Shown here: piece after piece, positions 15,367 through 37,526 of the stretch | Layout: each line of letters begins with the position of its first letter | Numbering within the stretch: position 1 is the stretch's first letter | Assembly: GCA_030669585.1 (NCBI GenBank) | Contig: DAOVDI010000002.1 | Location: forward strand, 1-61,858 | Direction of reading: 5' to 3' | Origin: Acidobacteriota bacterium | GTDB lineage: Bacteria > Acidobacteriota > Aminicenantia > Aminicenantales > Aminicenantaceae | DNA: 61,858 nucleotides | Translations under genes and position numbers: made by a program | Notes under the pieces: model-generated | Told to the model about the DNA's origin: nothing | The model's input: the letters and a program-made list of their open reading frames with translations, nothing else | Database searches by the model: none

Positions 15367-15382
15367 TGCAATTATTGTGCCA
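15367..15382 (-). promoter_or_regulatory. Sigma-54 (-24/-12) promoter, consensus match
   Basis: The minus strand reads TGGCAC-aataa-TTGCA. This matches TGGCAC-N5-TTGCW exactly, about 30 nt upstream of the ATG at 15337. Confidence 0.65.
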
Positions 15383-18184: not shown

Positions 18185-18194
18185 AGTATCTCCC

Positions 18195-20189: not shown

Positions 20190-20205
20190 TGCAAAATCTA
20201 TGCCG
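20190..20205 (-). promoter_or_regulatory. Sigma-54 (-24/-12) promoter candidate for the group-3b hydrogenase operon
   Basis: The minus strand reads cGGCAT-agatt-TTGCA. GG and GC have the correct 12-nt register. About 78 nt upstream of the ATG at 20113. Confidence 0.55.
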
Positions 20206-23794: not shown

Positions 23795-25255
23795 TTATCG
23801 TTTGAGTTGTTTAACCAATTCACCGGCTCTATCGTAGATGTTGATCTCGAGCGGCATATCTCCGGGCAGACAATGGGTTCCGCAGGCATGGCAGGGGTCG
23901 TACGGCCTGAAACCCATCTCGACCATATTCAGCAGTCCGTCGTCTACCTTACCTCCTTTGATGAAGGATTTTGCCGCTTTTTCAATGGACATATTGATGG
24001 CGGCAGCATTGTTAAGAGTGGCAACGATAAGATTCGCCTCGGTGATAATGCCTTTTTCATCTGTCTTGTAGTGATGAAAGAGCGTGCCGCGGGGGGCTTC
24101 GACAACACCGAATCCCTCATCCGGAGTTTTAGTCGGAATGTTGCGGATATGTGTGTTTGTGATATCCTTGTCCTCCAGCAGCTGAACCATTGTTTCCGCA
24201 GCTTGAAGCGCTTCGATCAGCCGGGCCCAATGAAAAGCCAGTGTGTGGTGAGAGGGCCTTCCTCCAAGGACCTCGAACATCTTTTCATAATGCTCCTGGG
24301 CCAGCGGCGACTGCATCCCATCCGCTGCGTTGAGGCGTGCAAGTGGTGCGACTCTGAACACACCTGAGTCTTTTCCTTCCTCAAAGCCTTTCCATCCGAC
24401 ATTTTTTAAGAATGGGAACTTGATATAAGTCCAGGGCTCTACATGCTCGGAGATGTGGTCCAAATATTCCCGGGCCTTAAATTTGGCGAATTCCTTTCCG
24501 TCCGGGTCGACCACACGGATGTCGCCGTCATAAAATTCGACTTTGTTGTCCGGTGTGACCATTCCCATGTAATAGGTTTTAATTTGATAGGCGTCGCCGA
24601 CAACAATGTCAACGTATTCCTTATTTTGAAGTACCACATCGTTGAAGATTTTCAAGGCGAATTGAGCAAATTCCACTGTTTCCTTGGCCCATCCTAAAAA
24701 TTCGACTCTGTGTTCTTCATCCAGCCCTTTGGAAACGCCGCCTGGAAGACCGCAAACCGGATGTATGATCTTTCCACCCAGATAGTTGATGATCTCACGG
24801 GTCAGCCTTCGGATTTTTATGACCTGTCCTCCGATCTCCAGGCCGACTTTGCCGATGACACCCAGAATGTTGCGTTCGGCCTTTGGAACGTTCGGGCCCA
24901 CAACAAAATCAGGCCCTCCCAGGAAGAAAAAGTGTAGAGTGTGATCCTCGAACTGGAAAGAATTGTAAATAAGTTCTCTGATTTTTTTTGCAGTCGGAGG
25001 TGGTTTGACATGCCAGAGGTCGTCTACGGCTTTTGTTGAAGCCATGTGGTGGGCGGTCGGACAAACGCCGCAGATGCGCGGAGTGATCCGCGGCATCTCT
25101 TCAGCAGGTCTTCCTACGGCGAACTGCTCGAACCCGCGCAATTCTGGTATCTGAAGGATAGCACGGTCCACATCTCCATTGTCATCAAGAAAGATCTCTA
25201 TCTTGCCGTGTCCCTCCAGGCGCGTAATCGGATCAATGGTAATTCTTTTGCTCAT
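23795..25255 (-). CDS. mvhA: [NiFe] hydrogenase large subunit, Mvh-type (group-3c-like)
   Basis: 486 aa. Motifs RLEGHGKIEI, RICGVCPTAH and C-terminal DPCHACGTH, followed by a 25-aa cleavable extension. Adjacent mvhG and mvhD. Confidence 0.85.
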   Translation of the reverse strand: MSKRITIDPITRLEGHGKIEIFLDDNGDVDRAILQIPELRGFEQFAVGRPAEEMPRITPRICGVCPTAHHMASTKAVDDLWHVKPPPTAKKIRELIYNSFQFEDHTLHFFFLGGPDFVVGPNVPKAERNILGVIGKVGLEIGGQVIKIRRLTREIINYLGGKIIHPVCGLPGGVSKGLDEEHRVEFLGWAKETVEFAQFALKIFNDVVLQNKEYVDIVVGDAYQIKTYYMGMVTPDNKVEFYDGDIRVVDPDGKEFAKFKAREYLDHISEHVEPWTYIKFPFLKNVGWKGFEEGKDSGVFRVAPLARLNAADGMQSPLAQEHYEKMFEVLGGRPSHHTLAFHWARLIEALQAAETMVQLLEDKDITNTHIRNIPTKTPDEGFGVVEAPRGTLFHHYKTDEKGIITEANLIVATLNNAAAINMSIEKAAKSFIKGGKVDDGLLNMVEMGFRPYDPCHACGTHCLPGDMPLEINIYDRAGELVKQLKR

Positions 25256-26235
25256 TTGACAGTCTCCATTCTTTTTCTTCTTAATATTGATGATGGAAGG
25301 CTGAATCGATAGAATGTTCCCGCTGGATCGACGATCGTGTTAACGATCTTTTCAATTTCTTCCTCATCATCTGAGTCCAGAAGTGATGCAAAGGCGCCTA
25401 GGAATTTTGCTCCCTGGTCGTAGACCTGGTCGGTAGGGCCGAAACAGCCTCTGCAGGGCATATTTCCGAGAATACAGCGTTCTTCGCATCCTGACCGGGT
25501 AGCAGGCCCCATACAGATAATCCCCTGGGCCAGGAAACATTTTTCATTGTCCATCTCGACTTCCCAGGGTCTTTTGACCGCTTTTATCGCCAGCTTTTCC
25601 GGTTTGGAATCATTGCGGCCACAGTCGTCGCAGAGAGATTTGTTTGGAGAAAGGACTGCTCCTTTGGAGGGGAGTTTCCCTTCCAGGATCGCTGTTATGG
25701 CGGTCATGATCAGATGTTTTGGGGGGGCGCAGCCCGGTAGATAATAATCCACATCGATCACCTGATCAAGTGTATAAACTGTGTCATAAAACCGGGGAAG
25801 AGTAAGTTCCTTGCCGTCTTCCATAATATGCTTTTCCTGGGGAATTGTTCCTTCAGGGTTGTCTGTGGATGGGGATGTGTGATATGAACTGTTAAAGATG
25901 GTCTTCCTGTTCCAAAAGTTAGCAAGTCCGGGGATACCGCCCAGATGGGAGCAGCTTCCAAAAGCAACGACAAGACCGGATTTCCGGCGCAGGAGGTTTA
26001 CCATTTCTTCCTGTTCTGAATTCCTGACAGCACCATTGATAAAACTTACAGCAATGGATCCGTCTTCCATTGCTTCTACATCCGTTTTTTTAAAATCCAT
26101 GGCAACCGGCCAGAATACGATATCAACAGCAGCTGTGACTTTTAATATGTCCTCTGCCAGGTCTATTACAGCTTCTTCACATCCGCCGCAGGATGCACAC
26201 CAGTAAAATGCGACTTTAGGCTTCTCTGTACTCAT
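25252..26235 (-). CDS. mvhG: [NiFe] hydrogenase small subunit, Mvh-type
   Basis: 327 aa. Motifs WCASCGGCEE, FGSCSHLGG, YLPGCAP and distal Cys motifs. No Tat signal, so it is cytoplasmic. Confidence 0.8.
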   Translation of the reverse strand: MSTEKPKVAFYWCASCGGCEEAVIDLAEDILKVTAAVDIVFWPVAMDFKKTDVEAMEDGSIAVSFINGAVRNSEQEEMVNLLRRKSGLVVAFGSCSHLGGIPGLANFWNRKTIFNSSYHTSPSTDNPEGTIPQEKHIMEDGKELTLPRFYDTVYTLDQVIDVDYYLPGCAPPKHLIMTAITAILEGKLPSKGAVLSPNKSLCDDCGRNDSKPEKLAIKAVKRPWEVEMDNEKCFLAQGIICMGPATRSGCEERCILGNMPCRGCFGPTDQVYDQGAKFLGAFASLLDSDDEEEIEKIVNTIVDPAGTFYRFSLPSSILRRKRMETVK

Positions 26236-26659
26236 TGATGTCTCCTTTCATAATATTTAATGGTCCTAATTCTTTGATCTGTTCTGTGAATTCGTCGCAT
26301 ACATTCTGGAATTTAGCGCCTTCAGCAGCTGAAACCCATTCCAGTCTGAGCCGTTCTTTTTCTATACCGAACTGTTCAAGCATTTTTCTTAAAAGGCGAT
26401 GTCGTCTCAAAGCTTTATAGTTTCCTTCTTTGTAGTGGCAGTCTCCTGGATGACACCCTGAAATGAGGATGCCGTCCGCCCCCTCTTTAAATGCTTTTAT
26501 CACAAACTGAGGGTCAACACGTCCGCTGCACATAACTCGAATAATTCGTATATTCGGAGAATATGTCATTCTGGCAGTTCCGGCAAGGTCTGCACCTGTA
26601 TAGGAACACCAGGTGCATAGGAAACCAATTAGTGTGGGATCGAAATTCTCGCTACTCAT
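26216..26659 (-). CDS. mvhD: MvhD/FlpD-type hydrogenase iron-sulfur (2Fe-2S) subunit
   Basis: 147 aa. Motifs FLCTWCSYTGADLAG, VMCSGRVDP and GCHPGDCHY. GGAGG RBS upstream. Confidence 0.85.
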   Translation of the reverse strand: MSSENFDPTLIGFLCTWCSYTGADLAGTARMTYSPNIRIIRVMCSGRVDPQFVIKAFKEGADGILISGCHPGDCHYKEGNYKALRRHRLLRKMLEQFGIEKERLRLEWVSAAEGAKFQNVCDEFTEQIKELGPLNIMKGDINEYREA

Positions 26660-26680
26660 TGGCAGCCTCCTTCCATTGTT

Positions 26681-28438
26681 TTATTCAATAAATATTCCTT
26701 CAATTTCGGCAAAAATCTGTTTATCACGGAAATGCTTCTGCTGGGCCGCTCCACTTGGACAGGCTGAAACGCAGGTACCGCAGCCCTTGCACAAAGCATC
26801 GTTGATTTCAGAGATTCCTTTTTCTTTATCATAAGTGATCGCTGTAAAAGGACAAAGTCCCACGCAGATCTGGCAGCCGGCGCAGAGCTCTTCATCGATC
26901 TCGGCTGTGATTGGTTCGAGATCAAACTTTCCCTTATCAGCCAGAGCAAGGGCCTCGCATGCCGCAGCACCAGCCTGTGCGACAGTATCGGGAATGTCTT
27001 TGGGTGACTGGCATGTTCCTGCCAGAAAGATCCCGTCAGAGAAAGTGGATACCGGAGCTAGTTTGGGGTGTCTCTCCAGGAAAAAGCCATCCTGGCTGCA
27101 GGAGATGTTGAAGACTTTGGCGATCTGGTTGGAATCTGTTCCGGGTTCCAGCCCGGTTGCCAGGATGACCATGTCCACCGGGATGCGCCTGACAACTCCG
27201 ATCAATGTGTCTTCTACGCGGATAATAAGCTTTCCTTCTTCTTCTTTGCTGAGAGCCATGTCACTTACTTCGGAGACACGTCCCCGGATGAATTTTGTCC
27301 CTTCATGAAGCAGCCGGTGATAAAATTCCTCATATCCTTTGCCGAAACACCTCATATCGATATAAAAATCGTAGATGTCTGCAGATGTCTTTTCTTTGAG
27401 TAAATGTGCAAATTTCAGAGAATACATACAGCAGACGCGTGAACAGTACTCATTGTAATTTTCGTCTCTAGACCCAACACAGTGGATGATGCCCACGGAC
27501 TTGGGTTCCTCGCCGTTGGATAAGAGAATCTTTCCTCCTGTCGGACTTGATGCATTAACAAGTCTTTCGAATTCCAGAGCAGTGATGACATTATCTAAAC
27601 GGCCATATCCATACGCTGGGATCAAGGAAGGGTCAAAGGATTTGAACCCGGATGCCAGAATTATCGAACCCACTTCGAGCTCGATTTCTTCATCCTGAGC
27701 TTCATGGTCGATAGCTTCTTTTTGACAAACATCTGAGCAGATCTTACATTCCCCCGTCTTAAAGTGGATACAGGCTTCTTCATCGATAAAAGGCACCATG
27801 GGGACAGCCTGCCGGATGGGAACGCGAATAGCGGTTGAAGGACCGAGATCCAGTTCGCTGTGAATTACTTTTCGGCCGTGAAGGTCTTCGACCGTAATGG
27901 CTCCGGTAGGACAGAAAAATGCACAGGCCGTACAGCCGATACATGCTTCGGACTGCTCACCGAATGGGGTGCAGACTTCCCGGTGCTGGCCTCTCTGGAG
28001 AAAACTGATGGCACTGGCACCCACAATATCTTCACAGGCCCTTACGCACATTCCGCAGAGGATACATTTTTCATCCGGATCTTTGATCTTGAAACGGGTT
28101 TTTTCTATACCCAATTCCTTCGCCAGTTCCTGGACAGGTACTGCGGCAGGTGCTTGAGCAAGGAGCATTTCGACATTCATTCTGCGTGCAAAAAGAGCTT
28201 TATCCGAAGCGGTCTGGATTTCCATCCCGTTCTTGACCAGTGTGTTACAGCTTGTGACGAGTTCAGAACCTTTGCCTGAAATGGATTCCACAACACAGAC
28301 CCGGCAGGCTGCATAGGGCTCCATTAGGGGGTGATAGCAAAGGGTTGGAATTTTGATCTCTTGCTGTTCAGCCGCTTGAAGAATTGTTATTCCATCCTCG
28401 ACCTGGATTGTTTTTCCGTCTATCTTTAAATTCACCAC
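26681..28438 (-). CDS. Fusion protein: HoxU/NuoG-N-terminal-like 2Fe-2S/4Fe-4S module joined to the C-terminal two-thirds of HdrA
   Basis: 585 aa with a GTG start after AAGGAG. Residues 1 to about 200 carry IDGKTIQV…CYHP…CRVCVVE…C (2Fe-2S) and CILCGMCVRAC. From about residue 165 there is HdrA-like sequence: CIGCTACAFFCPTGAI…RQAVP…CKICSDVC…VGSIILASGFKSFDP…CVGSRD…YCSRVCCMYSLK…FLAGTCQSPKDIPDTVAQ. Then a C-terminal 2x[4Fe-4S] (CAGCQICVGLCP, CKGCGTCVSACP). Confidence 0.75.
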   Translation of the reverse strand: MVNLKIDGKTIQVEDGITILQAAEQQEIKIPTLCYHPLMEPYAACRVCVVESISGKGSELVTSCNTLVKNGMEIQTASDKALFARRMNVEMLLAQAPAAVPVQELAKELGIEKTRFKIKDPDEKCILCGMCVRACEDIVGASAISFLQRGQHREVCTPFGEQSEACIGCTACAFFCPTGAITVEDLHGRKVIHSELDLGPSTAIRVPIRQAVPMVPFIDEEACIHFKTGECKICSDVCQKEAIDHEAQDEEIELEVGSIILASGFKSFDPSLIPAYGYGRLDNVITALEFERLVNASSPTGGKILLSNGEEPKSVGIIHCVGSRDENYNEYCSRVCCMYSLKFAHLLKEKTSADIYDFYIDMRCFGKGYEEFYHRLLHEGTKFIRGRVSEVSDMALSKEEEGKLIIRVEDTLIGVVRRIPVDMVILATGLEPGTDSNQIAKVFNISCSQDGFFLERHPKLAPVSTFSDGIFLAGTCQSPKDIPDTVAQAGAAACEALALADKGKFDLEPITAEIDEELCAGCQICVGLCPFTAITYDKEKGISEINDALCKGCGTCVSACPSGAAQQKHFRDKQIFAEIEGIFIE

Positions 28439-28449
28439 GTTTTATCTCC

Positions 28450-30282
28450 TTAATCGACCTTTACTGCACCGAATTTACATACGTCATAACACACGCCGCA
28501 TTTTGTACATTTATCCTGAATGATTTGGTGGGGTTGATTCCTTTCGCCTAAAATTGCGTCTGAGGCGCAGTTGCGCCGGCAGAGGTCACATCCATGGCCA
28601 GTGTTAACGCATATATCTTCATCAATGGTATAGACGTTCAGGTCCCTGCAGGTGTGAGCCGGGCATTTTTTATCCCTGATATGGGCTTCGTATTCGCTGC
28701 GGAAATATTTCATGGTTGTCAGGACAGGATTTGGTGCGGTTTTTCCAAGGCCGCACAGAGCGGAATCCTTGATGGAGACAGCCAATTCCTCCAACAGCGT
28801 AAGGTCTTCATCTGTTCCCTCTCCCTTGGTGATTCGTGTCAGAATATCAAGCATAGCCTTGGTCCCTTCCCTGCAGGGAGTACATTTCCCGCATGACTCG
28901 TCCTGGGTAAAAGAGAGAAAATATCGGGCTACATCCACCATGCAGGTGTCTTCGTCCATTACTACCATCCCGCCTGAGCCCATCATTGATCCGGCGTCGG
29001 ACAGGCTTTCATAATCAATAGGAAGATCGATCTTCTCTTTCGGAATACAGCCTCCTGACGGGCCTCCCGTCTGAACGGCCTTGAATTCTCTGCCTCCGGG
29101 AATACCGCCTCCAATGTCATAGATGATCTCTCTAAGAGTGATCCCCATGGGTACTTCGACCAGGCCGGTGTTATTGATCTTTCCCACCAGGGAGAAGACC
29201 TTTGTACCCTTGCTGGTTTCGGTTCCGATATGGGAATACCATTTGGCTCCCCGGTTGATAATGGGCGCGATATTGGCCCAGGTCTCTACATTGTTGATAA
29301 GTGTCGGGCATCCCCAAAGGCCTTTCTCGGCAGGATAGGGGGGACGCGGTTTGGGCTCTCCCAGCCGCCCCTCGATCGACGACAGCAGGGCGGTCTCTTC
29401 TCCGCATATAAATGCGCCGGCCCCGCGTACGATTTTGATATCAAAGTCCATCCCGCTGCCCAGTATGTTTTTTCCCAGAAGGCCGTACTCCCTGGCGTCA
29501 TCCAGGGCTTTGTACAGCCTGTTCAGGGCCAGCGGGTATTCATTCCGGACATAGGCATATCCCTGTGTTGCATTGATAGCCTTGGCTCCGATGACCATGC
29601 CTTCGATGACGGAATGGGGATCGGCTTCAAGAATACTCCGGTCCATAAAGGCTCCTGGGTCTCCTTCGTCCCCGTTACAAACAAGATATTTTACATTCCC
29701 GTTGGAGCTGACGGCATTGCTGACGAATTCCCATTTTAATCCTGTTGGAAATCCCCCTCCCCCTCGGCCCCGAAGTCCTGATTTTTGGATTTCAGATCTG
29801 ATATCTGAGGGAGACATACTGGTCAGAGCTTTAGCCATCGCCTTGTAACCGTCCCGGGCAATGTATTCATCGATTTTTTCCGGATCTATCAATCCCCTGT
29901 TTCTCAGGGCGATAAGGACCTGTTTTTTGAAAAAGTCAATATCACTCAGTACAGGGATGGGTGTTTTTTCTTCGGGAGGGATATACATCAATTTTTCAAC
30001 CGGGCGGCCTTTAAGAAAGTGCTCCTCAACAAGATGAGGAATATCTTTCGTCGTTAGGGTCTGATAAAAAATATTTCCCGGCTGGACAACCAAAAGCGGA
30101 CCCCTCTCGCAAAAACCATTGCATCCGGTCGTGACGATAAGAACTTCATTATCCAGGTCCTGTTTTTTTATTTCCGTTTCCAATGCTTCTTTGATCTCAA
30201 ACGAATGATTGGAAACGCAGGCGGTGCCGGCACAAACCATGAGATGGACTCGGTATTCTTTTTCCTTTTTTATTTTTGCCAT
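28450..30282 (-). CDS. NuoF-like NAD(P)H-binding FMN/Fe-S subunit (HydB/HndC/HoxF-like)
   Basis: Start taken at MAKIKKEKEY (30282, AAGGA RBS); the track start is 30315. N-terminal thioredoxin-like 2Fe-2S domain. NAD/FMN motifs GDEGDPGAF and GRGGGGFPTGLKW. N3 cluster CGKCTPCREG. C-terminal 2x[4Fe-4S]. Confidence 0.85.
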   Translation of the reverse strand: MAKIKKEKEYRVHLMVCAGTACVSNHSFEIKEALETEIKKQDLDNEVLIVTTGCNGFCERGPLLVVQPGNIFYQTLTTKDIPHLVEEHFLKGRPVEKLMYIPPEEKTPIPVLSDIDFFKKQVLIALRNRGLIDPEKIDEYIARDGYKAMAKALTSMSPSDIRSEIQKSGLRGRGGGGFPTGLKWEFVSNAVSSNGNVKYLVCNGDEGDPGAFMDRSILEADPHSVIEGMVIGAKAINATQGYAYVRNEYPLALNRLYKALDDAREYGLLGKNILGSGMDFDIKIVRGAGAFICGEETALLSSIEGRLGEPKPRPPYPAEKGLWGCPTLINNVETWANIAPIINRGAKWYSHIGTETSKGTKVFSLVGKINNTGLVEVPMGITLREIIYDIGGGIPGGREFKAVQTGGPSGGCIPKEKIDLPIDYESLSDAGSMMGSGGMVVMDEDTCMVDVARYFLSFTQDESCGKCTPCREGTKAMLDILTRITKGEGTDEDLTLLEELAVSIKDSALCGLGKTAPNPVLTTMKYFRSEYEAHIRDKKCPAHTCRDLNVYTIDEDICVNTGHGCDLCRRNCASDAILGERNQPHQIIQDKCTKCGVCYDVCKFGAVKVD

Positions 30283-30295
30283 TATCCACGTCCTT

Positions 30296-30685
30296 TCAGT
30301 AATCGGTTTTTTCACTGCCTATGCCCAGGGCATATTTTTCAACGATTTTGCCGCCGAGCACATGTTTTTCCAGAATTTCCTTAGTTTTAGCTCCTGTCAA
30401 TTCTACATATTTCACCGGGGCCTGCCCTTTGATTTCAACAGTCAGCATGGGTTCTTTGCTGCACAGCCCGGCACACCCGGAATTTGTCAGGAGGATTTCG
30501 GTTATATCTTGGGCTTCGATTTCTTCCATCAGAGCGGCCATGATGCCGCGTGCTCCTGCTGCTATTCCGCAGGTTCCCATATGGACAGTGATCTTTGCCC
30601 TGAATTCACTGTCGCCGCGGAGCATGGTTGTTTTTTTTGTTTTTTCTCTAATTTCTTCAAGATCTTCAAGTGTGAGTTTTGGCAT
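30296..30685 (-). CDS. Thioredoxin-like [2Fe-2S] ferredoxin (HndB/HydD-like)
   Basis: 129 aa. Motifs VHMGTCGIAAGA and SGCAGLCSKEP. Confidence 0.75.
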   Translation of the reverse strand: MPKLTLEDLEEIREKTKKTTMLRGDSEFRAKITVHMGTCGIAAGARGIMAALMEEIEAQDITEILLTNSGCAGLCSKEPMLTVEIKGQAPVKYVELTGAKTKEILEKHVLGGKIVEKYALGIGSEKTDY

Positions 30686-31160
30686 CTTTTTCCTCCTTCC
30701 TTCTTCCTTCTTTATATTTTTTTAATACGCCTGGAACCTTGGCCTGAGAGATCTTTCCATATACGTCCTCTCCAATCATTACAACAGGAGCAAGGCCGCA
30801 GCATCCGACGCAGTGAACTTCATCCAGGCTGAATTCCTTGTCTTCCGTGGTTTCCCCGGATTTGATGTTAAGTTCTCTTTCAAGTTTTTCGAGGACCAAC
30901 TGAGCGCCGCGTACATGGCAGGCTGTTCCCAGACAGACATGAATAGGATGTTTGCCTTTGGGTTCCAGGCTAAAAGCATTAAAAAATGTTGCCAGGCTCA
31001 ATACGCGACTGAGAGGTATATTCATCTCGCGGGAAACCTGCAGGATGGCTTCCTTCGGCAAATATCCGAGGGCCTCTTGGATATCCTGCAGAATAGAGAT
31101 AATTGAACTCTGGTCAGTTTCATAATTCGCAAGGATTTGGGAGATTTTTTCTGGATTCAT
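30666..31160 (-). CDS. NuoE-like [2Fe-2S] subunit (HydC/HndA/HoxE-like)
   Basis: 164 aa. Motif SIISILQDIQ. Cluster motifs VCLGTACHVRG and CVGCCGLAP. Confidence 0.85.
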   Translation of the reverse strand: MNPEKISQILANYETDQSSIISILQDIQEALGYLPKEAILQVSREMNIPLSRVLSLATFFNAFSLEPKGKHPIHVCLGTACHVRGAQLVLEKLERELNIKSGETTEDKEFSLDEVHCVGCCGLAPVVMIGEDVYGKISQAKVPGVLKKYKEGRRKEEKDAKTHT

Positions 31161-31705
31161 TTTTCCCTCCTAATAAGGTTTAACTTTTTATCTATTTTAG
31201 TTTTTAAGATGTTGATTACCTCTGGGGAGTTGATCGGAATGCCATCAAGTTGTTTTTTTATTTCCTTTGTGTCAAATGTGAATTCGGATCGATCGGATTT
31301 GGCTGAAAAAAAGATGTCAATATCCGGATGGCCTATGATCAAAGTGGCAAGGGTCTGTGATATGTCTCCTAGAGGCTTGGTGTCAATGTGGTCTGCCTTA
31401 AAAGTTGCTTTTATATTTGTTCCCTGACCGGCTTTGGAATTAATGACAAAACTGCCTTCCGCGCTTCTGGCGGCTTCGGCAAGCAATGACAGCCCAAGGC
31501 CGAATTTTCTTGTCTTTTTAGTTGTAAAAAAAGGATTTAATGCAGCATTCATGGTATCTTCCGTCATTCCTTTCCCGTCATCTGTGATTTCCAGGCTGAG
31601 CAGATTGTTTTTGCTGTCCTTCTTGATAGAGATTTCGATATTTCGGGCCTCTGCCCGAATCGAATTCTCAGCGATATCAAGAATGTGCAATGATAGATCC
31701 TCCAT
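31157..31705 (-). CDS. Stand-alone GHKL (histidine-kinase-like) ATPase, no H-box domain
   Basis: 182 aa. N box HILDIAENSIRA. G1 DDGKGM. G2 GLGLSL. It sits between the PHP and NuoE-like genes. Confidence 0.7.
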   Translation of the reverse strand: MEDLSLHILDIAENSIRAEARNIEISIKKDSKNNLLSLEITDDGKGMTEDTMNAALNPFFTTKKTRKFGLGLSLLAEAARSAEGSFVINSKAGQGTNIKATFKADHIDTKPLGDISQTLATLIIGHPDIDIFFSAKSDRSEFTFDTKEIKKQLDGIPINSPEVINILKTKIDKKLNLIRREK

Positions 31706-31710
31706 GTTTA

Positions 31711-32442
31711 TTAATGTAAGATTTTTCGTCCTTTTCTATTCAAAAATGCCATTTTAATTTCTTTGGCGGTTCCTTCTTTCATATAAAATTGTGTGTATCC
31801 TTTGCCGATATCGTCTGGAAAATGAGCATCGGATGATTGGATGATGGGAAGGGGAAAGTCATATTGGGATGCGGCCTTCTCAAATGACATCCTTCGGGAA
31901 ATTTCAAGGGCATCCAATTCAAGATTGTCCGGAAGGAATCCAAGCTGCCCGAGAAGACTGAATGATTCTCTGTCTATGTGAGCTGCAATGGCGATTCCGT
32001 TAAAGTCATGAATGAGATGGATAACTTTATCTATGGTAAAAGTTGAAGCGCCGATCAGGAGTTTTTTATTGAAATGAAGGACTTCATCATTTTTATTGAC
32101 GACGACCTGCATGCCGAATGCTTCCTCGTCGTTTTCGCCCGGGAGATTTTTATAGATCAATTCCTGAAGATGTAGAGCAGAACTCACATTGTCGAAAAGG
32201 GCCAGAATGTGGATTTCTTCGAGAGATGTGACTTCAATCCCTGGTAGTACGCGGATCTCATATTCAGCGGCTGCCTCTATGACAGCAGGAACATTTTCGG
32301 CCGAATTATGATCGCAAATGCCCAGAATATCAATGGACGATTCTCTGGCCTTCATGGCTATCGTTGTCGGCGACATCTTTAAATCCGCACATGGAGAAAG
32401 GCATGTGTGGATATGAAGATCCGCCTTAAATATTTTAAGCAT
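31711..32442 (-). CDS. PHP-domain metal-dependent phosphoesterase
   Basis: 243 aa. Motifs ADLHIHTCLSPC, ICDHNS, AAHIDR and SSDAH, the His/Asp motifs of the PHP fold. Confidence 0.75.
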   Translation of the reverse strand: MLKIFKADLHIHTCLSPCADLKMSPTTIAMKARESSIDILGICDHNSAENVPAVIEAAAEYEIRVLPGIEVTSLEEIHILALFDNVSSALHLQELIYKNLPGENDEEAFGMQVVVNKNDEVLHFNKKLLIGASTFTIDKVIHLIHDFNGIAIAAHIDRESFSLLGQLGFLPDNLELDALEISRRMSFEKAASQYDFPLPIIQSSDAHFPDDIGKGYTQFYMKEGTAKEIKMAFLNRKGRKILH

Positions 32443-32443
32443 T

Positions 32444-32785
32444 TTATTTTTTGGTATCTAAAAGGGCATACAATTTACCTGATATAACAAATGCCGAATC
32501 CTGAGTTGATAGAATGGGGATGTTTTCTTCCTCTGCTTTTTTCAGTGTTTCTTCGTCCGGCTTTCGATTATTCACGAGGATGATTCCAGAAAGTTCTTTG
32601 AGTTTTGCTACTGCTACGATGTTGAGGTGAATTTGAAGCGTGATCCACAATTCTTTTTCTTTGCTGTTAGCAATGACATCACTCAGAAGATCGCTTGAAT
32701 AACCGAAGCTGACCTTGTCTTCCAGGTTTTTATCGGCACTTAAGATTACAAGGTTTAATTTTTCTACGATTTGTTTAAGTGTCAT
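32444..32785 (-). CDS. DRTGG-domain protein
   Basis: Start placed at MTLKQIVEKLNL (32785), about 113 aa. The track ORF extends to 32908 inside the upstream gene. Motifs SDLLSDV and ILVNNRKPDEE…IPILST resemble the paralog at 34576. Confidence 0.6.
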   Translation of the reverse strand: MTLKQIVEKLNLVILSADKNLEDKVSFGYSSDLLSDVIANSKEKELWITLQIHLNIVAVAKLKELSGIILVNNRKPDEETLKKAEEENIPILSTQDSAFVISGKLYALLDTKK

Positions 32786-34139
32786 TTTTTTCTTCCTTTT
32801 TGCCTTTATCATTTGAGTCATCAGTGTCAGTGCGCCTCTCTTTGGCCGATTCGAGCTGCAGCTTGTAATCATCCGCAAGCTTGAAAATACAATCCGTGAT
32901 CTCGGCATCGGCTTTTACCACATCTTCAGCAAATGTCATGCATGTAGGGGAGCCGCAAGCGCCGCAGTCGATTTTGGGGAGGGATTCATATATTTCTTCT
33001 TTTTCCCTCATCTTTTGAATGGCGGCGGCAAGATTGCTGTCCAAAGGTTTAAGAGGCCTTGGTTCTGCCTTTCGTTTCATAGAAAAGTAATTTTGAGCAA
33101 ACAGTTTCCTGATATACCGTATATCCGAACATGCTTTAATTTCTTCGTATTCCAGTCTTTCAACGATCTTGAGGATTTTGTTGTAGCTGATGTATGAGTT
33201 TTCTACTGTCAGGGATCCACCTACGCATCCTTGTGGGCAGGAATAAGCCTCGATAAAGTCAATGTGGTTCAGTTTTCCCTGTTCAATATCATTAAATACT
33301 TTTATAATCTCGCTGATCCCGGAAACAGCCAGGGAATTTTTAAGCCGCAGGGTCCGGCTGATTCCTCCGACCATGGCCCATCCTATTCCAAGAATGCATA
33401 TGTTTTGCAGAGATTTTTTATAGCTTCGGCGTTCGACGCTTTCCATGGCTGAAAGCAGGGGTCCATAGATGTCCGAGATGGAGATGGCTCCATCAAGATA
33501 GGATCTTCCTTTTTCCGCAGGCTGTTTGATTGAGAGCATTTTAACCGGGCATGGAGTGATATAAAAAGTCCCGATATCCTTTTCATCGAGTCCGTATTGA
33601 GCCGATTTTTGTTTTTTAACCTCACGGCCTGCGATCTCTCTGGGGACGTTCAGAGATATGATGTGGTCGATCAAAGATGGGTATTTGACCTGGATCAAGC
33701 GTACAACCGTGGGGCAGGAATTGAAGATGACCGGCTTTGGACCTTTGTGTTCATTGAGATATTCATTTATAGCAAAGCTGACTTGTCCGCAGGTGTTTAT
33801 AAGGTCAAAAGCGTCATCAAATCCCAATTTTTTCAAGCCGTTCAATATCTCATATGGAAGAATATCCCTTCCGAATTGAGCAATAAGCGCAGGAGAAGGA
33901 ATGGCAACTGTGTGCCTGAATTTGGAGAGTTCACCGAAGGGGTCAGTTAAGGGAACGATAGCTCCCTCTGGACAGATCGTAATACATTCGCCGCAGTCGA
34001 TACATCTGTCTTCCAGGATAATGGCTTTTCCATTCCTTACCCGGATCGCTTGTGTCGGGCAGACGTGCATACATTTCATACGTCCGTTGCATTTGTCCTC
34101 TTCTATACGGATAGAGTGATAGTAGTGGCTGTTGTTCAT
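32775..34139 (-). CDS. [FeFe]-hydrogenase-like protein with degenerate H-cluster motifs (putative sensory, HydS/Hfs-like)
   Basis: 454 aa. N-terminal 2x ferredoxin-type Cys motifs. L1-like FNSCPTVV (canonical TSCCPxW). L2-like ITPCPVKM (canonical MPCxxKxxE). L3-like EAYSCPQGCVGGS (canonical ExMxCxxGCxxGGGQP). Extra C-terminal CGACGSPTC motif. Confidence 0.75.
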   Translation of the reverse strand: MNNSHYYHSIRIEEDKCNGRMKCMHVCPTQAIRVRNGKAIILEDRCIDCGECITICPEGAIVPLTDPFGELSKFRHTVAIPSPALIAQFGRDILPYEILNGLKKLGFDDAFDLINTCGQVSFAINEYLNEHKGPKPVIFNSCPTVVRLIQVKYPSLIDHIISLNVPREIAGREVKKQKSAQYGLDEKDIGTFYITPCPVKMLSIKQPAEKGRSYLDGAISISDIYGPLLSAMESVERRSYKKSLQNICILGIGWAMVGGISRTLRLKNSLAVSGISEIIKVFNDIEQGKLNHIDFIEAYSCPQGCVGGSLTVENSYISYNKILKIVERLEYEEIKACSDIRYIRKLFAQNYFSMKRKAEPRPLKPLDSNLAAAIQKMREKEEIYESLPKIDCGACGSPTCMTFAEDVVKADAEITDCIFKLADDYKLQLESAKERRTDTDDSNDKGKKEEKNDT

Positions 34140-34579
34140 TTTTTCCCGTTTAAATAAAATGTGACATCAAGGGTCGTCCCTTTTCCCGGCGAGGAAGAAA
34201 TATCAAGTTTATCTGCATTCCTTTTAATGTTGGGAAGTCCCAATCCTGCGCCGAATCCCATTTCGCGCATTTCATCGGTTGCGGTCGAGTATCCTTCCTG
34301 CATGGCCAGTTCGATATTGTTAATACCCTGGCCTTTATCCTTGAATGTAATATTGATGGCCGATAGGCTCAGACAAAGAATAACTTCCGCATGGTCCGCA
34401 TACATGACGATATTCATTTCCGCTTCGTAGGACGCGATGGCCGCCCTGCGTATGATGGCCGGAGCGATCCCGATCTCTTCAAGAATCTCTTTGATTTTTG
34501 TAGATACGATGCCGGCATGGCTGAAATTTCTTCCCTGGACATTAAATTTTTTTATGAATCCATTTCCCTGGCATATCAT
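34136..34579 (-). CDS. Stand-alone GHKL ATPase, anti-sigma-factor/Ser-kinase-like (SpoIIAB/RsbW-like)
   Basis: 147 aa. Motifs EAEMNIVMYA, DKGQGI and GAGLGLPNI. No HisKA domain. Confidence 0.7.
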   Translation of the reverse strand: MICQGNGFIKKFNVQGRNFSHAGIVSTKIKEILEEIGIAPAIIRRAAIASYEAEMNIVMYADHAEVILCLSLSAINITFKDKGQGINNIELAMQEGYSTATDEMREMGFGAGLGLPNIKRNADKLDISSSPGKGTTLDVTFYLNGKK

Positions 34580-34935
34580 GTTTTTATGGTCCTTTCAACA
34601 CCGGCAAGGCCGTGGTTGTACAACAGGCCGCAGGCTTTGTACATCATAAATTTTGTGGACAGCAGGGGAATGTTTTTTTGCCCGGCCAGTTCGATTCCAT
34701 TGCTATCGGGCTTTTTGCCCCGCACATAGATGACAGCATTGGCGCCAATGATGTCTGCTGTCCGTACTGTTTGTATATTGGACAGCCCTGTAAGCAAAAG
34801 GAGTCCCGGTTGACCGAAAGCGAGTACATCGCTCATTAAATCCGATCCTCCGGCACACTCGATCTCTACATCAAGGTAGTTCTCTCCGCAGATAAGATCA
34901 GCCTCCAGAATTTCTTTTATTTCTTTTAACTTCAT
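34576..34935 (-). CDS. DRTGG-domain protein
   Basis: Start placed at MKLKEIKEIL (34935), immediately after the hdrA-N stop; the track start is 34953. Motifs GGSDLMSDVL, LLLTGLSN and IYVRGKKPD…IPLLST. Confidence 0.65.
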   Translation of the reverse strand: MKLKEIKEILEADLICGENYLDVEIECAGGSDLMSDVLAFGQPGLLLLTGLSNIQTVRTADIIGANAVIYVRGKKPDSNGIELAGQKNIPLLSTKFMMYKACGLLYNHGLAGVERTIKT

Positions 34936-34936
34936 T

Positions 34937-35788
34937 TTAGTGTTCTTTTTCAATCTTTTTAATGATCATATCTCCTTTCCGAATGATCCTTTCCGATGGT
35001 GTGATGGTCGTAGGACAATTATTCCAGCAGTCGCCGCAGCCGTTGCATTTATCGACGTCAACATACCGGGCTTTTTTCTTAATCTTTACTTTAAAATTGC
35101 CGACAAATCCCGATATCTCCTCTACTTCACTCCAGGTCAAAAGCTCAATGTTTGGATGTTTTCCGACTTCAGACATTTTCGGGGTTAATATGCAGGCAGA
35201 GCAGTCTAGGGTCGGAAACGTTTTATCAAGCATAGACATATGGCCGCCTATGGAAGATTCTTTTTCTACCAAGTAGACTTTTTTGCCGGAACTGGCATAG
35301 GTCAATGCAGCATGAATACCTGCGATACCGCCCCCGACGATCAGTACTTCCGGGCGTACCGGGACTTCTTTTTTCATCAAAGGGTCATGCAGGGCGACGC
35401 GTCTGACGGCGGCAGAGATCAGGGCTTTGGCCTTTTTAGTGGCTGCATCCGGATTTTCTGTCACCCAGGAAACGTGCTCCCGAATGTTCGCCATCTGGAA
35501 GAAAAAGGGGTTCACTCCCCCTTCGCTCGTTGCTCCTCTGAATGTTGGTTCATGCATCAAAGGGGAACAGGACGCTACAACGACGCGTGTCAAGTTGTGC
35601 TCTTTAATTTGTTCCTTGATCAATTCCTGTCCCGGGTCAGAGCACATGAATTTATATTCTTTAGCCACAATAACGTTATCAAGTTTAGAGGCGAATTCAG
35701 CGACGTCATAGACATTTACTTTGTTCGAAATGTTAGTGCCGCAGTGGCATATAAATACTCCTATTCTCGGTTGTCCGTTTTGATTCAT
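34937..35788 (-). CDS. Truncated HdrA-like protein: N-terminal Fe-S domain, FAD-binding start of the thioredoxin-reductase fold, and one 4Fe-4S motif
   Basis: 283 aa. Motifs IGVFICHCGTNIS and VVVASCSP. Motif NPFFFQMANIREHVSW. Motif VLIVGGGIAGIHAAL…EKESSIGG. Motifs TLDCSACILTPK and CNGCGDCWNNCP, then a stop. Canonical HdrA is about 650 aa. Confidence 0.75.
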   Translation of the reverse strand: MNQNGQPRIGVFICHCGTNISNKVNVYDVAEFASKLDNVIVAKEYKFMCSDPGQELIKEQIKEHNLTRVVVASCSPLMHEPTFRGATSEGGVNPFFFQMANIREHVSWVTENPDAATKKAKALISAAVRRVALHDPLMKKEVPVRPEVLIVGGGIAGIHAALTYASSGKKVYLVEKESSIGGHMSMLDKTFPTLDCSACILTPKMSEVGKHPNIELLTWSEVEEISGFVGNFKVKIKKKARYVDVDKCNGCGDCWNNCPTTITPSERIIRKGDMIIKKIEKEH

Positions 35789-36669
35789 TTCGCCCCTCCA
35801 TTATTGATTTTTTGCCACATGTTTTTTAATGAGATGATCGATCGTTTAAAACCGAGGTCCTCTTTAGGAATTCCAAGGGCCAATCCCATGAGCTGTGTAA
35901 AATAGAGAACAGGGATTTTATAATCTTCTTTGTATTCTTTAGAAACCTTGGCTGCCATGATCTCGAGGTTGAACTGGCAGAGTGGGCACAGGGTCACAAT
36001 GACGTCTGCGCCCTTTTTTTTAGCCTCTTTGAGAAGGACATAATTTAATCCTTTTCCGATGTTTTCAATTGTTCCTGTTAGTGAACCGCCGCAGCACAAG
36101 GTTTTAGCTGAGTAATCCACGGCCTCAGCGCCCATGGCTTCCATGAGATTATCCATTGTTTCCGGGTAATCCGGATCGTCGAAGTCCGTGTAAGGCCTTA
36201 CCAACTGGCAGCCGTAATAGCACGCCACTTTGAGTCCGGTGAGCTTATTTTCGACTTTTTCCTTGATGGTATCCAAGCCTATTTCTTGGATAAATATTTC
36301 CAGGGGATGTCTGACTTTCACAGTGCCTTTGTATTCGCATCCTGTTGTTTTTAGATCGGTTAAAACCTTTTGGGCTTTATTTGATCCTTCTGTTAAAAAG
36401 GTGTTGGATTTTTTCATCGTCAGGAAACATCCGGCGCAGGGAGCCATGACATGACAGCCTGCCTTCTCGGCAATAGACAAGTTGCGACCGCATAAAGCAG
36501 CGGCTATTGTATCATCAACAGCGAAGTATGCTGTAGCTCCGCAGCAGTTCCAGTCATTCATTTCCTCGATTTCCATTCCGATCTTTTTTAGAACAGGCAG
36601 AAGGGATTCTTCGTAGTGTTTTGAACCGCCTTTTAGAGAGCAACCCGGATAATAGATATATTCATTCAT
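35785..36669 (-). CDS. hdrB: Heterodisulfide reductase subunit B (two CCG domains)
   Basis: 294 aa. Motifs YYPGCSL, NCCGATAYF, YYGCQL and LCCGGSL. Confidence 0.85.
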   Translation of the reverse strand: MNEYIYYPGCSLKGGSKHYEESLLPVLKKIGMEIEEMNDWNCCGATAYFAVDDTIAAALCGRNLSIAEKAGCHVMAPCAGCFLTMKKSNTFLTEGSNKAQKVLTDLKTTGCEYKGTVKVRHPLEIFIQEIGLDTIKEKVENKLTGLKVACYYGCQLVRPYTDFDDPDYPETMDNLMEAMGAEAVDYSAKTLCCGGSLTGTIENIGKGLNYVLLKEAKKKGADVIVTLCPLCQFNLEIMAAKVSKEYKEDYKIPVLYFTQLMGLALGIPKEDLGFKRSIISLKNMWQKINNGGAK

Positions 36670-37247
36670 TTTGCGTTCTCCTTAACTTCATTTAACAAAG
36701 TGCGCAGTTGCTTCCGGTTTTTGATCTTTTCTTTTTTTAAGCTCATTCGCCCAGTCTTCATCAGATTGATGCCCAGGGGGGCCATTTTTAACATACCGAG
36801 TGGATTTTTTAACTTAATATACATGTTCACAACAAGCCATAGTTCTGAATTCCGCCCGTTCTTCGCGATGAGCTTGCACATTTCTTGAGCAAGGACAGGA
36901 GGCTGAAGCCTGTTGGGATAAACTTTTTCTTCGATCGCTTTCCGTTTTAATGCATACATAACATCCGTGATCTTGATCTTTGCGGGACAGCGGACCTGAC
37001 ATGTATAACAAGAGGCACACAACCAGATGGTAAAACTCTTAAGAGCTTCTTCCTTGAATCCGTTTTTGATAAAGGAAATGATCTTCCTGGGGGGGTGGTC
37101 CATATAGACTGCCATAGGGCAGGAACTGCTGCATGCGCCGCACTGTATGCACTTGTCGATTTCTTCACATCCTGACATATCCTTAATTTCGTCTAAAAAA
37201 TTCTTGTCCAGCTCTTCTTCAAACTTAACCTTTCTCTGGATATCCAT
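36666..37247 (-). CDS. hdrC: Heterodisulfide reductase subunit C (2x[4Fe-4S])
   Basis: 193 aa. Motifs CIQCGACSSSCP and CASCYTCQVRCP. 4-nt overlap with hdrB. Confidence 0.85.
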   Translation of the reverse strand: MDIQRKVKFEEELDKNFLDEIKDMSGCEEIDKCIQCGACSSSCPMAVYMDHPPRKIISFIKNGFKEEALKSFTIWLCASCYTCQVRCPAKIKITDVMYALKRKAIEEKVYPNRLQPPVLAQEMCKLIAKNGRNSELWLVVNMYIKLKNPLGMLKMAPLGINLMKTGRMSLKKEKIKNRKQLRTLLNEVKENAK

Positions 37248-37497: not shown

Positions 37498-37526
37498 ATA
37501 ATATTTGTGAAATTTTGACTTGTCAA
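37498..37526 (-). promoter_or_regulatory. Candidate sigma-70 promoter for the hdr-mvh block, overlapped by a palindrome
   Basis: The minus strand reads TTGACA-17 nt-TATTAT. TCACA-N7-TGTGA (37494-37510) spans the -10. This would imply a leader of about 240 nt before hdrC. No sigma-54 match was found in 37248-37710. Confidence 0.3.

Follow-up and report, generated by a model that had tools for sequence, protein, structure and literature searches.

The window analyzed here, 61,858 nucleotides (nt) of DNA from an Acidobacteriota bacterium (contig DAOVDI010000002.1), contains a ~13.5-kb block of 16 consecutive intact open reading frames (ORFs) on the minus strand (37247-23795), in which genes for an Mvh-type [NiFe] hydrogenase and for HdrA, HdrB, and HdrC stand together with genes for a bifurcating module of the Bfu family (HydBC/NuoEF-type). 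We found that HdrA of this operon is encoded in two complementary halves and that a complete short BfuA is fused to the second half at the break. This Hdr-Bfu arrangement is real, conserved, and widespread. As to its predicted function, we lean towards one soluble Mvh-Hdr [NiFe] complex with a grafted Bfu module for nicotinamide adenine dinucleotide (NAD(H)) and ferredoxin (Fd). Wiring of this kind may explain the role of the abundant bacterial group 3c hydrogenases.

The gene content and order given in a preliminary description of this DNA were correct throughout, as Pfam and NCBIfam searches of the 16 ORFs backed every gene label (Table 1). Its claim of tight junctions also holds when these are calculated from the ORF listing of the window: read from hdrC to mvhA, they measure -4, -4, -17, -4, -4, ~-11, +1, +5, -4, and -20 nt, followed by -20 (+13 if nuoF begins at its ATG), +11, +21, -20, and -4 nt, the second DRTGG gene most likely starting at 32785 rather than 32908. 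Neither promoter-like matches (34 within the block against 31.0 +/- 5.8 in shuffled sequences) nor terminator-like matches (27 against 21.0 +/- 5.3) were in excess, which, together with the tight junctions, argues for a single-operon structure. The best sigma-70-like consensus match, a candidate promoter, lies ~250 nt 5' of hdrC within a 460-nt AT-rich spacer, and no hairpin with a U-tract was found 3' of mvhA.

A split HdrA with a BfuA graft

The ORF previously described as a truncated hdrA is instead the N-terminal half of a split, undegraded HdrA (HdrA_N). It matches residues 3-261 of HdrA from Methanothermococcus thermolithotrophicus (5odc_A), and its homologues, which fall into >120 clusters at 82-91% identity, are all 281-291 amino acids (aa) long, so that the position of the stop is conserved. 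HdrA_N comprises the N-terminal cluster domain and the first part of the flavin adenine dinucleotide (FAD)/TrxR domain (GGGIAG, residues 152-157), and ends with motif 1 of the inserted ferredoxin domain (CNGCGDCWNNCP), a 22-aa tail, and a stop codon. The C-terminal half (HdrA_C) is part of a 585-aa fusion protein (Fer2_4/NuoG-N::HdrA-C), of which residues ~197-582 match 275-652 of 8rvu_a in phmmer (E 3e-121), covering HdrA from residue ~265/275, up to 650 in 5odc_A. The inserted ferredoxin domain continues here with its motif 2 (C223, C231, C234, C238). HdrA_C also completes the FAD/TrxR domain, including a [4Fe-4S] site (C320, C332, C336, C337) and residues K342 and E291, and has the C-terminal 2x[4Fe-4S] ferredoxin domain, by homology the electron acceptor of MvhD. 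In alignments to the solved structures, the two HdrA pieces show neither overlap nor gap besides the inserted BfuA, and the break point falls between the two CxxCxxCxxxC motifs of the inserted ferredoxin domain. All four HdrA domains are present with their cysteines, distributed over two polypeptides rather than one. The two pieces are complementary, and HdrA_N is not a remnant. In a two-cluster ferredoxin fold, each cluster is ligated by both motifs. On this general architecture, both [4Fe-4S] clusters would have to be shared between HdrA_N and the fusion, which speaks for an obligate assembly of the two.

The N-terminal part of the fusion (residues 2-191) matches residues 5-193 of 9mqx_A, the 247-aa BfuA of WOR-Bfu, with an E value of 5e-38, and also matches the N-termini of HydA1 and NiFe-HydA. 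It carries the features of a BfuA subunit, namely a [2Fe-2S] site (C34, C45, C48, C64) and 2x[4Fe-4S] sites (C125/128/131/135 and C166/169/172/176); inspection of this part revealed no motif for a His-ligated cluster. In a set of 12 fusions with identities of only 36-80%, no variation was seen at the 16 cysteines that make up the [2Fe-2S] site, both [4Fe-4S] sites of BfuA, and HdrA motif 2, and the motif 1 cysteines of HdrA_N (C248/251/254/258) are invariant in five lineages. In the same 12 fusions, K342 (CCMYxxK), which aligns with K409 of 5odc_A, is invariant, and E291 (LExER), which aligns with E356, is at least 90% conserved. The lysine equivalent to K409 is described as a hallmark in a preprint on class II benzoyl-CoA reductase (BCRII; bioRxiv 10.64898/2026.04.10.717634). 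Homologues of the fusion at 77-91% identity form >120 clusters of constant length from metagenome-assembled genomes (MAGs) of "Candidatus Aminicenantes", which places the window in this lineage (OP8; Acidobacteriota). A pseudogene or an assembly artifact is ruled out by these constant lengths in >120 clusters for each HdrA half.

The remaining Bfu subunits are encoded between the two halves. The NuoF-like protein consists of an N-terminal [2Fe-2S] domain, a flavin mononucleotide (FMN)/NAD(H) site, the B1 [4Fe-4S], the cysteines of the Zn/B2 site, and, at the C-terminus, a 2x[4Fe-4S] domain for ferredoxin docking. Its residues 21-618 match 4-594 of Acetomicrobium mobile NiFe-HydB (7t2r_B; E 2.5e-252) with every cysteine motif aligned. 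Bifurcating BfuB was defined in PMC11829005, with the [B1-FMN-C1] flavobicluster as the minimal site, and the sequence features of BfuB and BfuC were both found here, so that the NuoF-like protein is, by its sequence, of the bifurcating BfuB type over its full length. Two candidate bifurcating flavins had been proposed in the preliminary description, and both sites keep their signatures, one in this end-to-end alignment and the other in K342 and E291 of the fusion.

The hydrogenase module carries the Ni-Fe ligand CxxC motifs and an MvhG-type small subunit, with MvhD encoded alongside. The large subunit scored 2.4e-131 against the VhuA model and 6e-50 or weaker against NCBIfam models of other classes, and the VhuG match of the small subunit covers residues 4-321 across the 286-position model. 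Among Protein Data Bank entries, the large subunit scored 404 bits with 7t2r_D, 396 with MvhA 5odc_F, and 338 with HoxH 5xf9_D, the Mvh/Vhu range being 393-400. In a small neighbor-joining (NJ) tree of the collected loci, A. mobile HydL, and the group 3b large subunit of the window, it nests among the large subunits of canonical hdrCBA-mvhDGA operons (60-70% identity), outside the HydL branch (43% identity to A. mobile HydL), and is 28% identical to the 3b subunit. On these matches the large subunit is classed as Mvh-type and group-3c-like, not as a member of the Acetomicrobium NiFe-HydABCSL lineage; a large subunit outside group 3c, which the preliminary description had named as a refuting outcome, was thus not observed. 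Of the Hdr subunits, HdrC is of the 2x[4Fe-4S] type, and HdrB shows both CCG and CxxC motifs and matches positions 3-288 of the 290 in TIGR03288 (6.6e-63, below cut-off).

Other classes were considered and rejected. A Hox (group 3d) enzyme does not fit the lower HoxH score, the C-terminal 2x[4Fe-4S] of the NuoF-like protein, or the presence of MvhD and a long MvhG. An enzyme of the A. mobile NiFe-HydABCSL type was dismissed on the grounds that the fusion matches 7t2r_A over residues 2-187 only, with HdrA making up the remainder, and that the best match of the small subunit is VhuG. As for a class II benzoyl-CoA reductase, an AFOR or BamC-like gene is absent from both the operon and the window.

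Six genes (two DRTGG, two GHKL ATPase, one PHP, and one [FeFe]-hydrogenase-like gene) are interposed between hdrA_N and nuoE. In the [FeFe]-like protein, an H-domain bearing NSCP/TPCP/SCPQGC motifs is combined with 2x[4Fe-4S] and, at the C-terminus, a PF04060 FeS domain; the protein keeps the H-cluster cysteines, with NSCP replacing TSCCP, i.e., without the proton-relay (second) cysteine. Its gene, flanked by DRTGG, GHKL, and PHP genes, is missing from compact versions of the operon, and the protein looks like a sensory or regulatory hydrogenase homologue. Together, the six genes would be a cassette for regulation or sensing, carried along with the Bfu module and separate from the redox core. 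In A. mobile, the operon encodes HydD, HydP, and HisK, none of which is present in the purified enzyme (Feng 2022). The preliminary description had pictured a HydABC locus with its HydA replaced. That picture is equivalent, but the block can be read equally well as a canonical hdrC-hdrB-hdrA-mvhD-mvhG-mvhA operon with a Bfu cassette (nuoE, hndB, nuoF, bfuA') and HydABC-type regulatory genes inserted inside hdrA.

Recurrence across phyla and natural variants

The 16-gene arrangement is not a chance one, because the same order recurs in other Aminicenantes assemblies (L001-L003; 53-87% aa identity, highest for the redox subunits) as well as in L008, a Bryobacterales MAG (42-70%). A compact nine-gene core without the six regulatory genes, hdrC-hdrB-hdrA_N-nuoE-nuoF-fusion-mvhD-mvhG-mvhA, was found in MAGs of Zixibacteria (L009), Ignavibacteria (L011), and Verrucomicrobiota (L018), and also in L013. 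On a 4.34-Mb contig (L088), the nine core genes and a hycI protease gene make up a self-contained 10-gene operon, in which the genes overlap by 1-4 nt at eight of nine junctions and are separated only at mvhD/mvhG, by 13 nt; the flanking genes lie on the opposite strand.

Co-occurrence was counted in 87 loci (L001-L087), 31 with the BfuA::HdrA_C fusion and 56 with an unsplit hdrA. Nearly all fusion loci contained nuoF (30/31), and nuoE, hdrA_N, and mvhD were each present in 26/31. Among the unsplit loci, nuoF occurred in 2/56 and the regulatory genes were essentially absent; L020, L025, L027, L035, and L043 show the canonical bacterial order hdrC-hdrB-hdrA-mvhD-mvhG-mvhA. Moreover, hdrC and hdrB with intact CCG and ferredoxin motifs were present in every complete locus across phyla. 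Homologue and cluster searches returned MAGs and assemblies only, and no cultured carrier organism.

Several natural variants join the same parts differently. HdrA_N and NuoE form one in-frame protein of 423-427 aa in four loci (L004, L006, L019, L034), in P0139 one polypeptide runs from the TrxR-N part of HdrA, including motif 1, through BfuA to HdrA_C, another protein (P0140) is a BfuA::HdrA_C::MvhD fusion, and variants from Planctomycetota and Desulfobacterota have a second complete HdrA appended. Further variants occur in Chloroflexota, KSB1, Eisenbacteria, Sumerlaeota, and archaea. Two loci (L004:3796-12941 and L006:363-9928) are hydrogenase-free Hdr-Bfu chimeras adjoining EtfAB, composed of HdrA_N::NuoE, NuoF, BfuA::HdrA_C with or without MvhD, and HdrCB or a 630-aa CCG protein; the first also adjoins acyl-CoA dehydrogenase and beta-oxidation genes. 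The neighboring EtfAB recalls BCRII, in which BamD has ETF as its high-potential partner. The fusion of L005:96-6409, 60% identical, is followed by mvhD, mvhG, and mvhA, and the sequence upstream of the fusion, just before the contig ends, encodes a 529-aa NADH_4Fe-4S + Fer4_20 + Pyr_redox_2 protein (GltD/NfnB-like) instead of NuoF, which suggests an NADPH-type variant. The architecture is not unique to the window and belongs to a broad family that includes versions without hydrogenase. Because of the Etf genes adjoining two chimeras and the GltD/NfnB-like protein of a third locus, the Hdr-Bfu chimeras appear, from their gene content, to be a family with exchangeable third modules.

Three loci showed further peculiarities. 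P0139 (JGI 3300042731) lies in a Bam-like cluster, with a BamB-like tungsten enzyme of the AFOR family, a Fer4_11 protein similar to BamC, and a further gene of HdrA type beside it, the difference from Bam being the BfuA inserted in HdrA. In a Dehalococcoidia MAG (L051, CAYGWR010000016.1), a canonical, unsplit hdrC-hdrB-hdrA-mvhD-mvhG-mvhA series is directly followed by nuoE, nuoF, a bfuA-like gene, and a further [NiFe] small-subunit-like gene; the locus may represent an intermediate, or the two systems may simply lie side by side. The HdrA_N gene of an Anaerolineae MAG (L016:2628-3434, CAYHAR010000143.1) has an in-frame TGA in the LDKTFPTLDCS-x-C motif (DCST*ILGPKM), at the position of the second cysteine elsewhere, and this TGA may encode selenocysteine. 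Selenocysteine occurs in some methanogen HdrA proteins.

Electron routes and competing explanations

The products of the operon very probably form a single complex, because the complementary HdrA halves would share two [4Fe-4S] clusters and because the redox genes stay linked across phyla, even in loci without the regulatory genes. The one-complex claim of the preliminary description is thereby strongly backed. In HdrA, the low-potential branch exits via the inserted ferredoxin domain and the high-potential branch via HdrC and HdrB (PMC9012536), and the same wiring was described for BamE of BCRII, where BamD, the high-potential outlet, passes electrons to ETF (bioRxiv 10.64898/2026.04.10.717634). 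Both sources assign MvhD together with the C-terminal ferredoxin domain as the input, and HdrBC or BamD as the high-potential output. Since the graft of the Bfu module falls exactly at the inserted ferredoxin domain, we propose a single complex whose low-potential arm leads to BfuBC, and attachment of Bfu at the low-potential port of HdrA is, on this comparison, probable.

The mechanism was derived by homology to the solved Mvh-Hdr, BCRII, and Bfu structures, with the parts list and covalent connectivity taken from the sequence. H2 would be oxidized at MvhA and, via MvhAGD, act as the mid-potential partner of the HdrA FAD. High-potential electrons would pass from FAD through HdrC and the noncubane clusters of HdrB to a disulfide or a protein acceptor. 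The low-potential branch would be hard-wired, running through the split ferredoxin domain and the BfuA clusters to the [B1-FMN-C1] site of BfuBC, and at this flavobicluster both NAD(H) and ferredoxin would give or take electrons. Two bifurcation/confurcation sites in series would thus couple H2, the HdrBC substrate, NAD(H), and ferredoxin, four partners in all, probably reversibly. In the forward direction, H2 would yield NADH and reduced ferredoxin, driven by the HdrBC acceptor; in reverse, the electrons of NADH and reduced ferredoxin would be pooled, which would help to expel high-potential electrons as H2 at low H2 pressure.

Several points weigh against this reading. Low-potential electrons would be fed to a module that normally takes mid-potential ones, which looks wasteful in the H2-oxidizing direction, and the energetic rationale of the series arrangement is the weakest part of our account. 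Whether both flavin sites are energetically coupled as proposed is close to an even question, tilting slightly towards no. The matches of HdrA, HdrB, HdrC, VhuA, and VhuG all lie below the NCBIfam equivalog cut-offs. That K409 of HdrA contacts N5 of the flavin is an assumption. No genes for a thiol carrier, DsrC, or Etf were found within the 61,858-nt window. In crude BLOSUM62 NJ trees of HdrA_C and MvhA, fusion-type and canonical sequences are interspersed and form no single clade, so the history and possibly the function of fusion-type loci may be heterogeneous. Finally, the six non-redox genes between hdrA_N and nuoE make sub-operonic expression possible.

In its fullest form, the proposal would be a four-substrate "cascade" hydrogenase with two mechanistically different bifurcation sites in series and a topology opposite to that of BCRII, the low-potential arm of the HdrA FAD feeding or being fed by the Bfu FMN-FeS site; we regard this form as conceivable but doubtful. 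If it were true, the forward reaction could draw on H2 and a high-potential HdrBC acceptor to give NADH and ferredoxin more reducing than either module alone could make, and the backward reaction could let fermenters and syntrophs combine NADH and reduced ferredoxin to release as H2, without a membrane, the electrons of a high-potential donor (a thiol, or ETF as in BCRII and in the Etf-linked L004 and L006). It would also give a physiological role to a large portion of those bacterial group 3c hydrogenases that count as "function-unresolved" and define a new family, the Hdr-Bfu chimeras, with and without hydrogenase.

An alternative is that HdrA serves only as a wire or adaptor, and that the operon encodes a second, independently evolved NiFe-Bfu hydrogenase catalyzing H2 + NAD+ + Fd_ox <-> NADH + Fd_red, like HydABCSL of A. 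mobile. MvhD and the split HdrA would then replace the C-terminal half of HydA in conducting electrons from the [NiFe] module to BfuA, the FAD would be a non-bifurcating relay, and HdrCB would be accessory (e.g., a thiol redox switch or a minor outlet). This explanation, which we hold to be unlikely, would make the energetic oddity of two serial bifurcations disappear, and it suits the similarity of the NuoF-like protein, greatest to A. mobile NiFe-HydB and FeFe-HydB, as well as the HisK/HydD-type and sensor genes in the operon, which are typical of HydABC-type loci. BCRII has a second, non-bifurcating HdrA-like FAD, so HdrA folds can be structural, and a need for H2 turnover that depends on NADH/Fd would be expected in the Aminicenantes, for which a fermentative or acetogenic lifestyle has been described. 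However, hdrC and hdrB are kept with intact motifs wherever the locus is complete, the lysine and glutamate that align with the bifurcating-FAD environment are conserved in the fusions, and the whole HdrABC apparatus would be superfluous for a plain conduit.

It is very improbable that the operon encodes two separate enzymes, an Mvh-Hdr hydrogenase and a physically uncoupled NuoEF-type NADH:ferredoxin or NADH-dependent oxidoreductase with its own regulators, co-transcribed for a common role in H2/redox balance. Operons often mix related but separate enzymes, six regulatory genes lie between hdrA_N and nuoE, and the A. mobile operon likewise encodes proteins missing from the purified enzyme. 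However, BfuA is covalently joined to HdrA_C, as NuoE is to HdrA_N in other lineages, nuoF is tied to the fusion (30/31 against 2/56 loci), and Mvh-Hdr cannot form without the fusion, the source of one half of the FAD domain as well as of the ferredoxin domain that docks MvhD. A disruptive insertion of a mobile or recombined HydABC-type cassette into hdrA, with the Hdr part left decaying or non-functional, is hardly credible: the break does fall within a gene, at repeated CxxCxxCxxxCP-coding motifs that could favor illegitimate recombination (BfuA C166-C176 aligns with HdrA motif 1), but 16/16 ORFs are intact, both halves are constant in length at 77-91% identity in >120 clusters each, the cofactor ligands are all invariant across lineages of only 40-60% identity, and the same split occurs in at least six phylum-level lineages.

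A single Mvh-Hdr complex with a grafted Bfu module would bear on a common group of enzymes. Group 3c genes are among the most abundant hydrogenase genes in anoxic sediment and subsurface metagenomes, and their bacterial role has been described as unresolved (PMC6472368). If, as the genes suggest, a widespread subset from Aminicenantes, other Acidobacteriota, Zixibacteria, Ignavibacteria, and Verrucomicrobiota is wired to a bifurcating NAD(H)/ferredoxin module, a concrete and testable reaction scheme would be at hand. The gene fusions would amount to natural protein engineering that marks the inserted ferredoxin domain as the Bfu docking site on HdrA. The complex would also be a second, topologically different case of stacked bifurcation modules after BCRII, which bears on the ways in which anaerobes widen or economize their redox range. 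Present annotations call the HdrA halves "FAD-dependent oxidoreductase", "(2Fe-2S)-binding protein", or "heterodisulfide reductase subunit A", and pipelines therefore record a plain Mvh-Hdr and overlook the NAD(H) link.

Genomic setting and relation to known systems

Downstream of the operon lie a two-component system, a group 3b [NiFe] hydrogenase operon, and genes for receiver-domain proteins, a HycI-like protease, and HypB (Table 1). In the Aminicenantes assembly L001, synteny covers the kinase, the regulator, and the beginning of the 3b operon, and the rest of the window holds housekeeping genes and four tRNAs. Control of the 16-gene operon through sigma-54 by the adjacent activator was considered and rejected: there is no -24/-12 match 5' of hdrC, and such matches are fewer than in shuffled sequences. 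Because there is no such site 5' of hdrC, the two-component system more likely controls the 3b hydrogenase.

Table 1. Coordinates of the operon genes in hdrC-to-mvhA order, followed by the candidate promoter, downstream genes, and sigma-54-type matches
Feature	Position	Strand	Evidence or remark
hdrC-like, 193 aa, two CxxCxxCxxxCP motifs	36666..37247	-	Pfam Fer4_8 4e-12; TIGR03290 CoB_CoM_SS_C 1.8e-22, below equivalog cut-off
hdrB-like, 294 aa, two CCG domains (noncubane cluster sites)	35785..36669	-	Pfam CCG 8e-27, 2 stretches
hdrA N-terminal half (HdrA_N), 283 aa	34937..35788	-	phmmer vs 5odc_A: 6-264 matches 3-261, E 1.5e-99
DRTGG-domain protein, 125 aa	34576..34953	-	Pfam DRTGG 0.004, below cut-off; conserved in L001, L008
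HATPase_c / HATPase_c_2 (RsbW-like) protein, 147 aa	34136..34579	-	Pfam
[FeFe]-hydrogenase-like putative sensor, 454 aa	32775..34139	-	Pfam Fe_hyd_lg_C 3.5e-26, FeS 2.6e-14; alignment to HydA2 7qv7_D
Second DRTGG-domain protein, ~113 aa	32444..32785	-	Pfam; 113-aa orthologue; revised start
PHP-domain protein, 243 aa	31711..32442	-	Pfam
GHKL ATPase (HATPase_c), 182 aa	31157..31705	-	Pfam; counterpart of 'HisK' in A. mobile NiFe-HydABCSL operon
nuoE / hydC / bfuC, 164 aa, [2Fe-2S] thioredoxin-like (C1 cluster of flavobicluster)	30666..31160	-	Pfam 2Fe-2S_thioredx 1.6e-50; NuoE, HoxE models ~1e-44
hndB / hydD-like small [2Fe-2S] protein, 129 aa	30296..30685	-	Pfam and NCBIfam
nuoF / hydB / bfuB, 621 aa (610 aa from ATG at 30282)	28450..30315	-	Pfam; phmmer vs 7t2r_B
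Fusion N-part, ~190 aa, complete short BfuA (HydA/NuoG N-terminus)	27869..28438	-	phmmer vs 9mqx_A
Fusion residues ~197-585, HdrA C-terminal half (HdrA_C)	26681..27850	-	phmmer vs 8rvu_a, 5odc_A
mvhD, 147 aa, [2Fe-2S] adaptor	26216..26659	-	Pfam FlpD 1.7e-57
mvhG-type [NiFe] small subunit, 327 aa, three-cluster type	25252..26235	-	VhuG 1.2e-62; Pfam Oxidored_q6
mvhA-type [NiFe] large subunit, 486 aa	23795..25255	-	VhuA 2.4e-131; RICGVCPTAHH and DPCHACGTHC motifs
Candidate operon promoter, best sigma-70-like match TTGACA-17-TATTAT	37498..37526	-	11/12 consensus matches
Cache-HAMP histidine kinase	21716-23701	-	downstream of operon
Sigma-54 response regulator	20368-21723	-	downstream of operon
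Group 3b [NiFe] hydrogenase operon	15663-20113	-	downstream of operon
Receiver-domain genes	14966-15337, 14547-14954, 13374-14495	-	downstream of operon
HycI-like protease and HypB	12125-13316	-	downstream of operon
Sigma-54-type -24/-12 match CGGCATAGATTTTGC	20191-20205	-	between sigma-54 response regulator and first 3b hydrogenase gene
Sigma-54-type -24/-12 match TGGCACAATAATTGC, perfect	15368-15382	-	5' of three receiver-domain genes

The group 3b large subunit (15663-17405, minus strand, 580 aa) extends ~150 aa beyond its C-terminal DPCISCSAH motif. This extension contains GVGNDERSDDRIG, which we take to resemble the motif of HycI/HyaD-type maturation endopeptidases, and Pfam, run on the whole protein, listed NiFeSe_Hases only; the large subunit may be fused to its own protease. 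A 579-aa large subunit gene is likewise present in L001. Two further genes are unrelated to the operon: one encodes a large NAD-specific glutamate dehydrogenase of 964 aa (8864-11758, minus strand), and the other a receiver-PAS-HD(HD_5) response regulator (38863-40236, minus strand) adjoining a tRNA-Lys/tRNA-Glu pair.

All six subunit types of the methanogen MvhAGD-HdrABC complex (5ODC, 8RVU; group 3c) are shared with the operon of the window. In contrast to the methanogen enzyme, HdrA of the window is split in the inserted ferredoxin domain, with BfuA fused at the break and the NuoE and NuoF genes inside the split; there is no MvhB-type polyferredoxin, and coenzyme M/coenzyme B (CoM/CoB) metabolism is not expected in the host bacterium. 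Free ferredoxin, a polyferredoxin, or BamBC is the endpoint of the low-potential branch in known enzymes, whereas in the window this branch is proposed to be hard-wired to Bfu.

The A. mobile NiFe-HydABCSL (7T2R; PMC8880783) shares with the window a [NiFe] hydrogenase and a bifurcating HydB/HydC core, as well as hisK- and hydD-like genes. Unlike that enzyme, the operon of the window lacks a long HydA (~690 aa, with a C-terminal remnant of the H-cluster domain on which HydS/HydL dock), its conduit being the short BfuA::HdrA_C plus MvhD, and it has a 327-aa MvhG-type small subunit, a large subunit of a different lineage, and HdrCB. By these sequence differences, the window operon is a convergent, independent joining of NiFe to Bfu. 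Desulfovibrio FlxABCD-HdrABC (Ramos et al. 2015) reportedly couples HdrABC to an NADH-oxidizing module via an MvhD-like subunit. The Flx module is said not to be of the NuoEF/Bfu type, to have no hydrogenase, and to act with an unsplit HdrA.

Archaeal hybrid [FeFe]/[NiFe] hydrogenases of group F/3f (Greening et al. 2024, PMC11216029), recognized only recently, also have a group 3 [NiFe] module on a HydBC core; unlike in the window, a true [FeFe] HydA is the fusion partner of their [NiFe] small subunit, and there is no Hdr. In HdrA paralogues of ANME-1 (Chadwick et al. 2022, PMC9012536), an NfnB-like domain interrupts the same inserted ferredoxin domain, so that a flavoprotein module linked to pyridine nucleotides is grafted at this site of HdrA too. 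That module is NfnB/GltD-like, a single polypeptide, archaeal, and uncharacterized, whereas the module of the window is BfuCBA.

Full-text literature searches and the supplement of Schut 2022 turned up no account of an Mvh/Hdr enzyme carrying an inserted NuoEF/Bfu module, and an earlier mention in subscription papers is possible; the Bfu family survey of Schut 2022 excluded metagenomic sequences and left 18 of its 57 clades uncharacterized. The novelty suggested in the preliminary description thus holds within these searches for the subunit set, but coupling of Bfu to HdrA as such is already known structurally, in another topology, from BCRII. This enzyme, Bam[(BC)2DEFGHI]2 (bioRxiv 10.64898/2026.04.10.717634; 'Bam-Bfu' in PMC9304861), is the closest characterized precedent and the only characterized Bfu-HdrA coupling that we found: Bfu-type BamGHI is coupled to HdrA-type BamE via an MvhD-like adaptor, and the HdrBC-like BamD, its high-potential outlet, passes electrons to ETF. 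The window has no BamB/C, and its HdrA is split rather than duplicated. In BCRII, Bfu occupies the mid-potential input and a tungsten enzyme the output, whereas in the complex proposed here the hydrogenase would occupy the mid-potential input and Bfu the low-potential port at the inserted ferredoxin domain.

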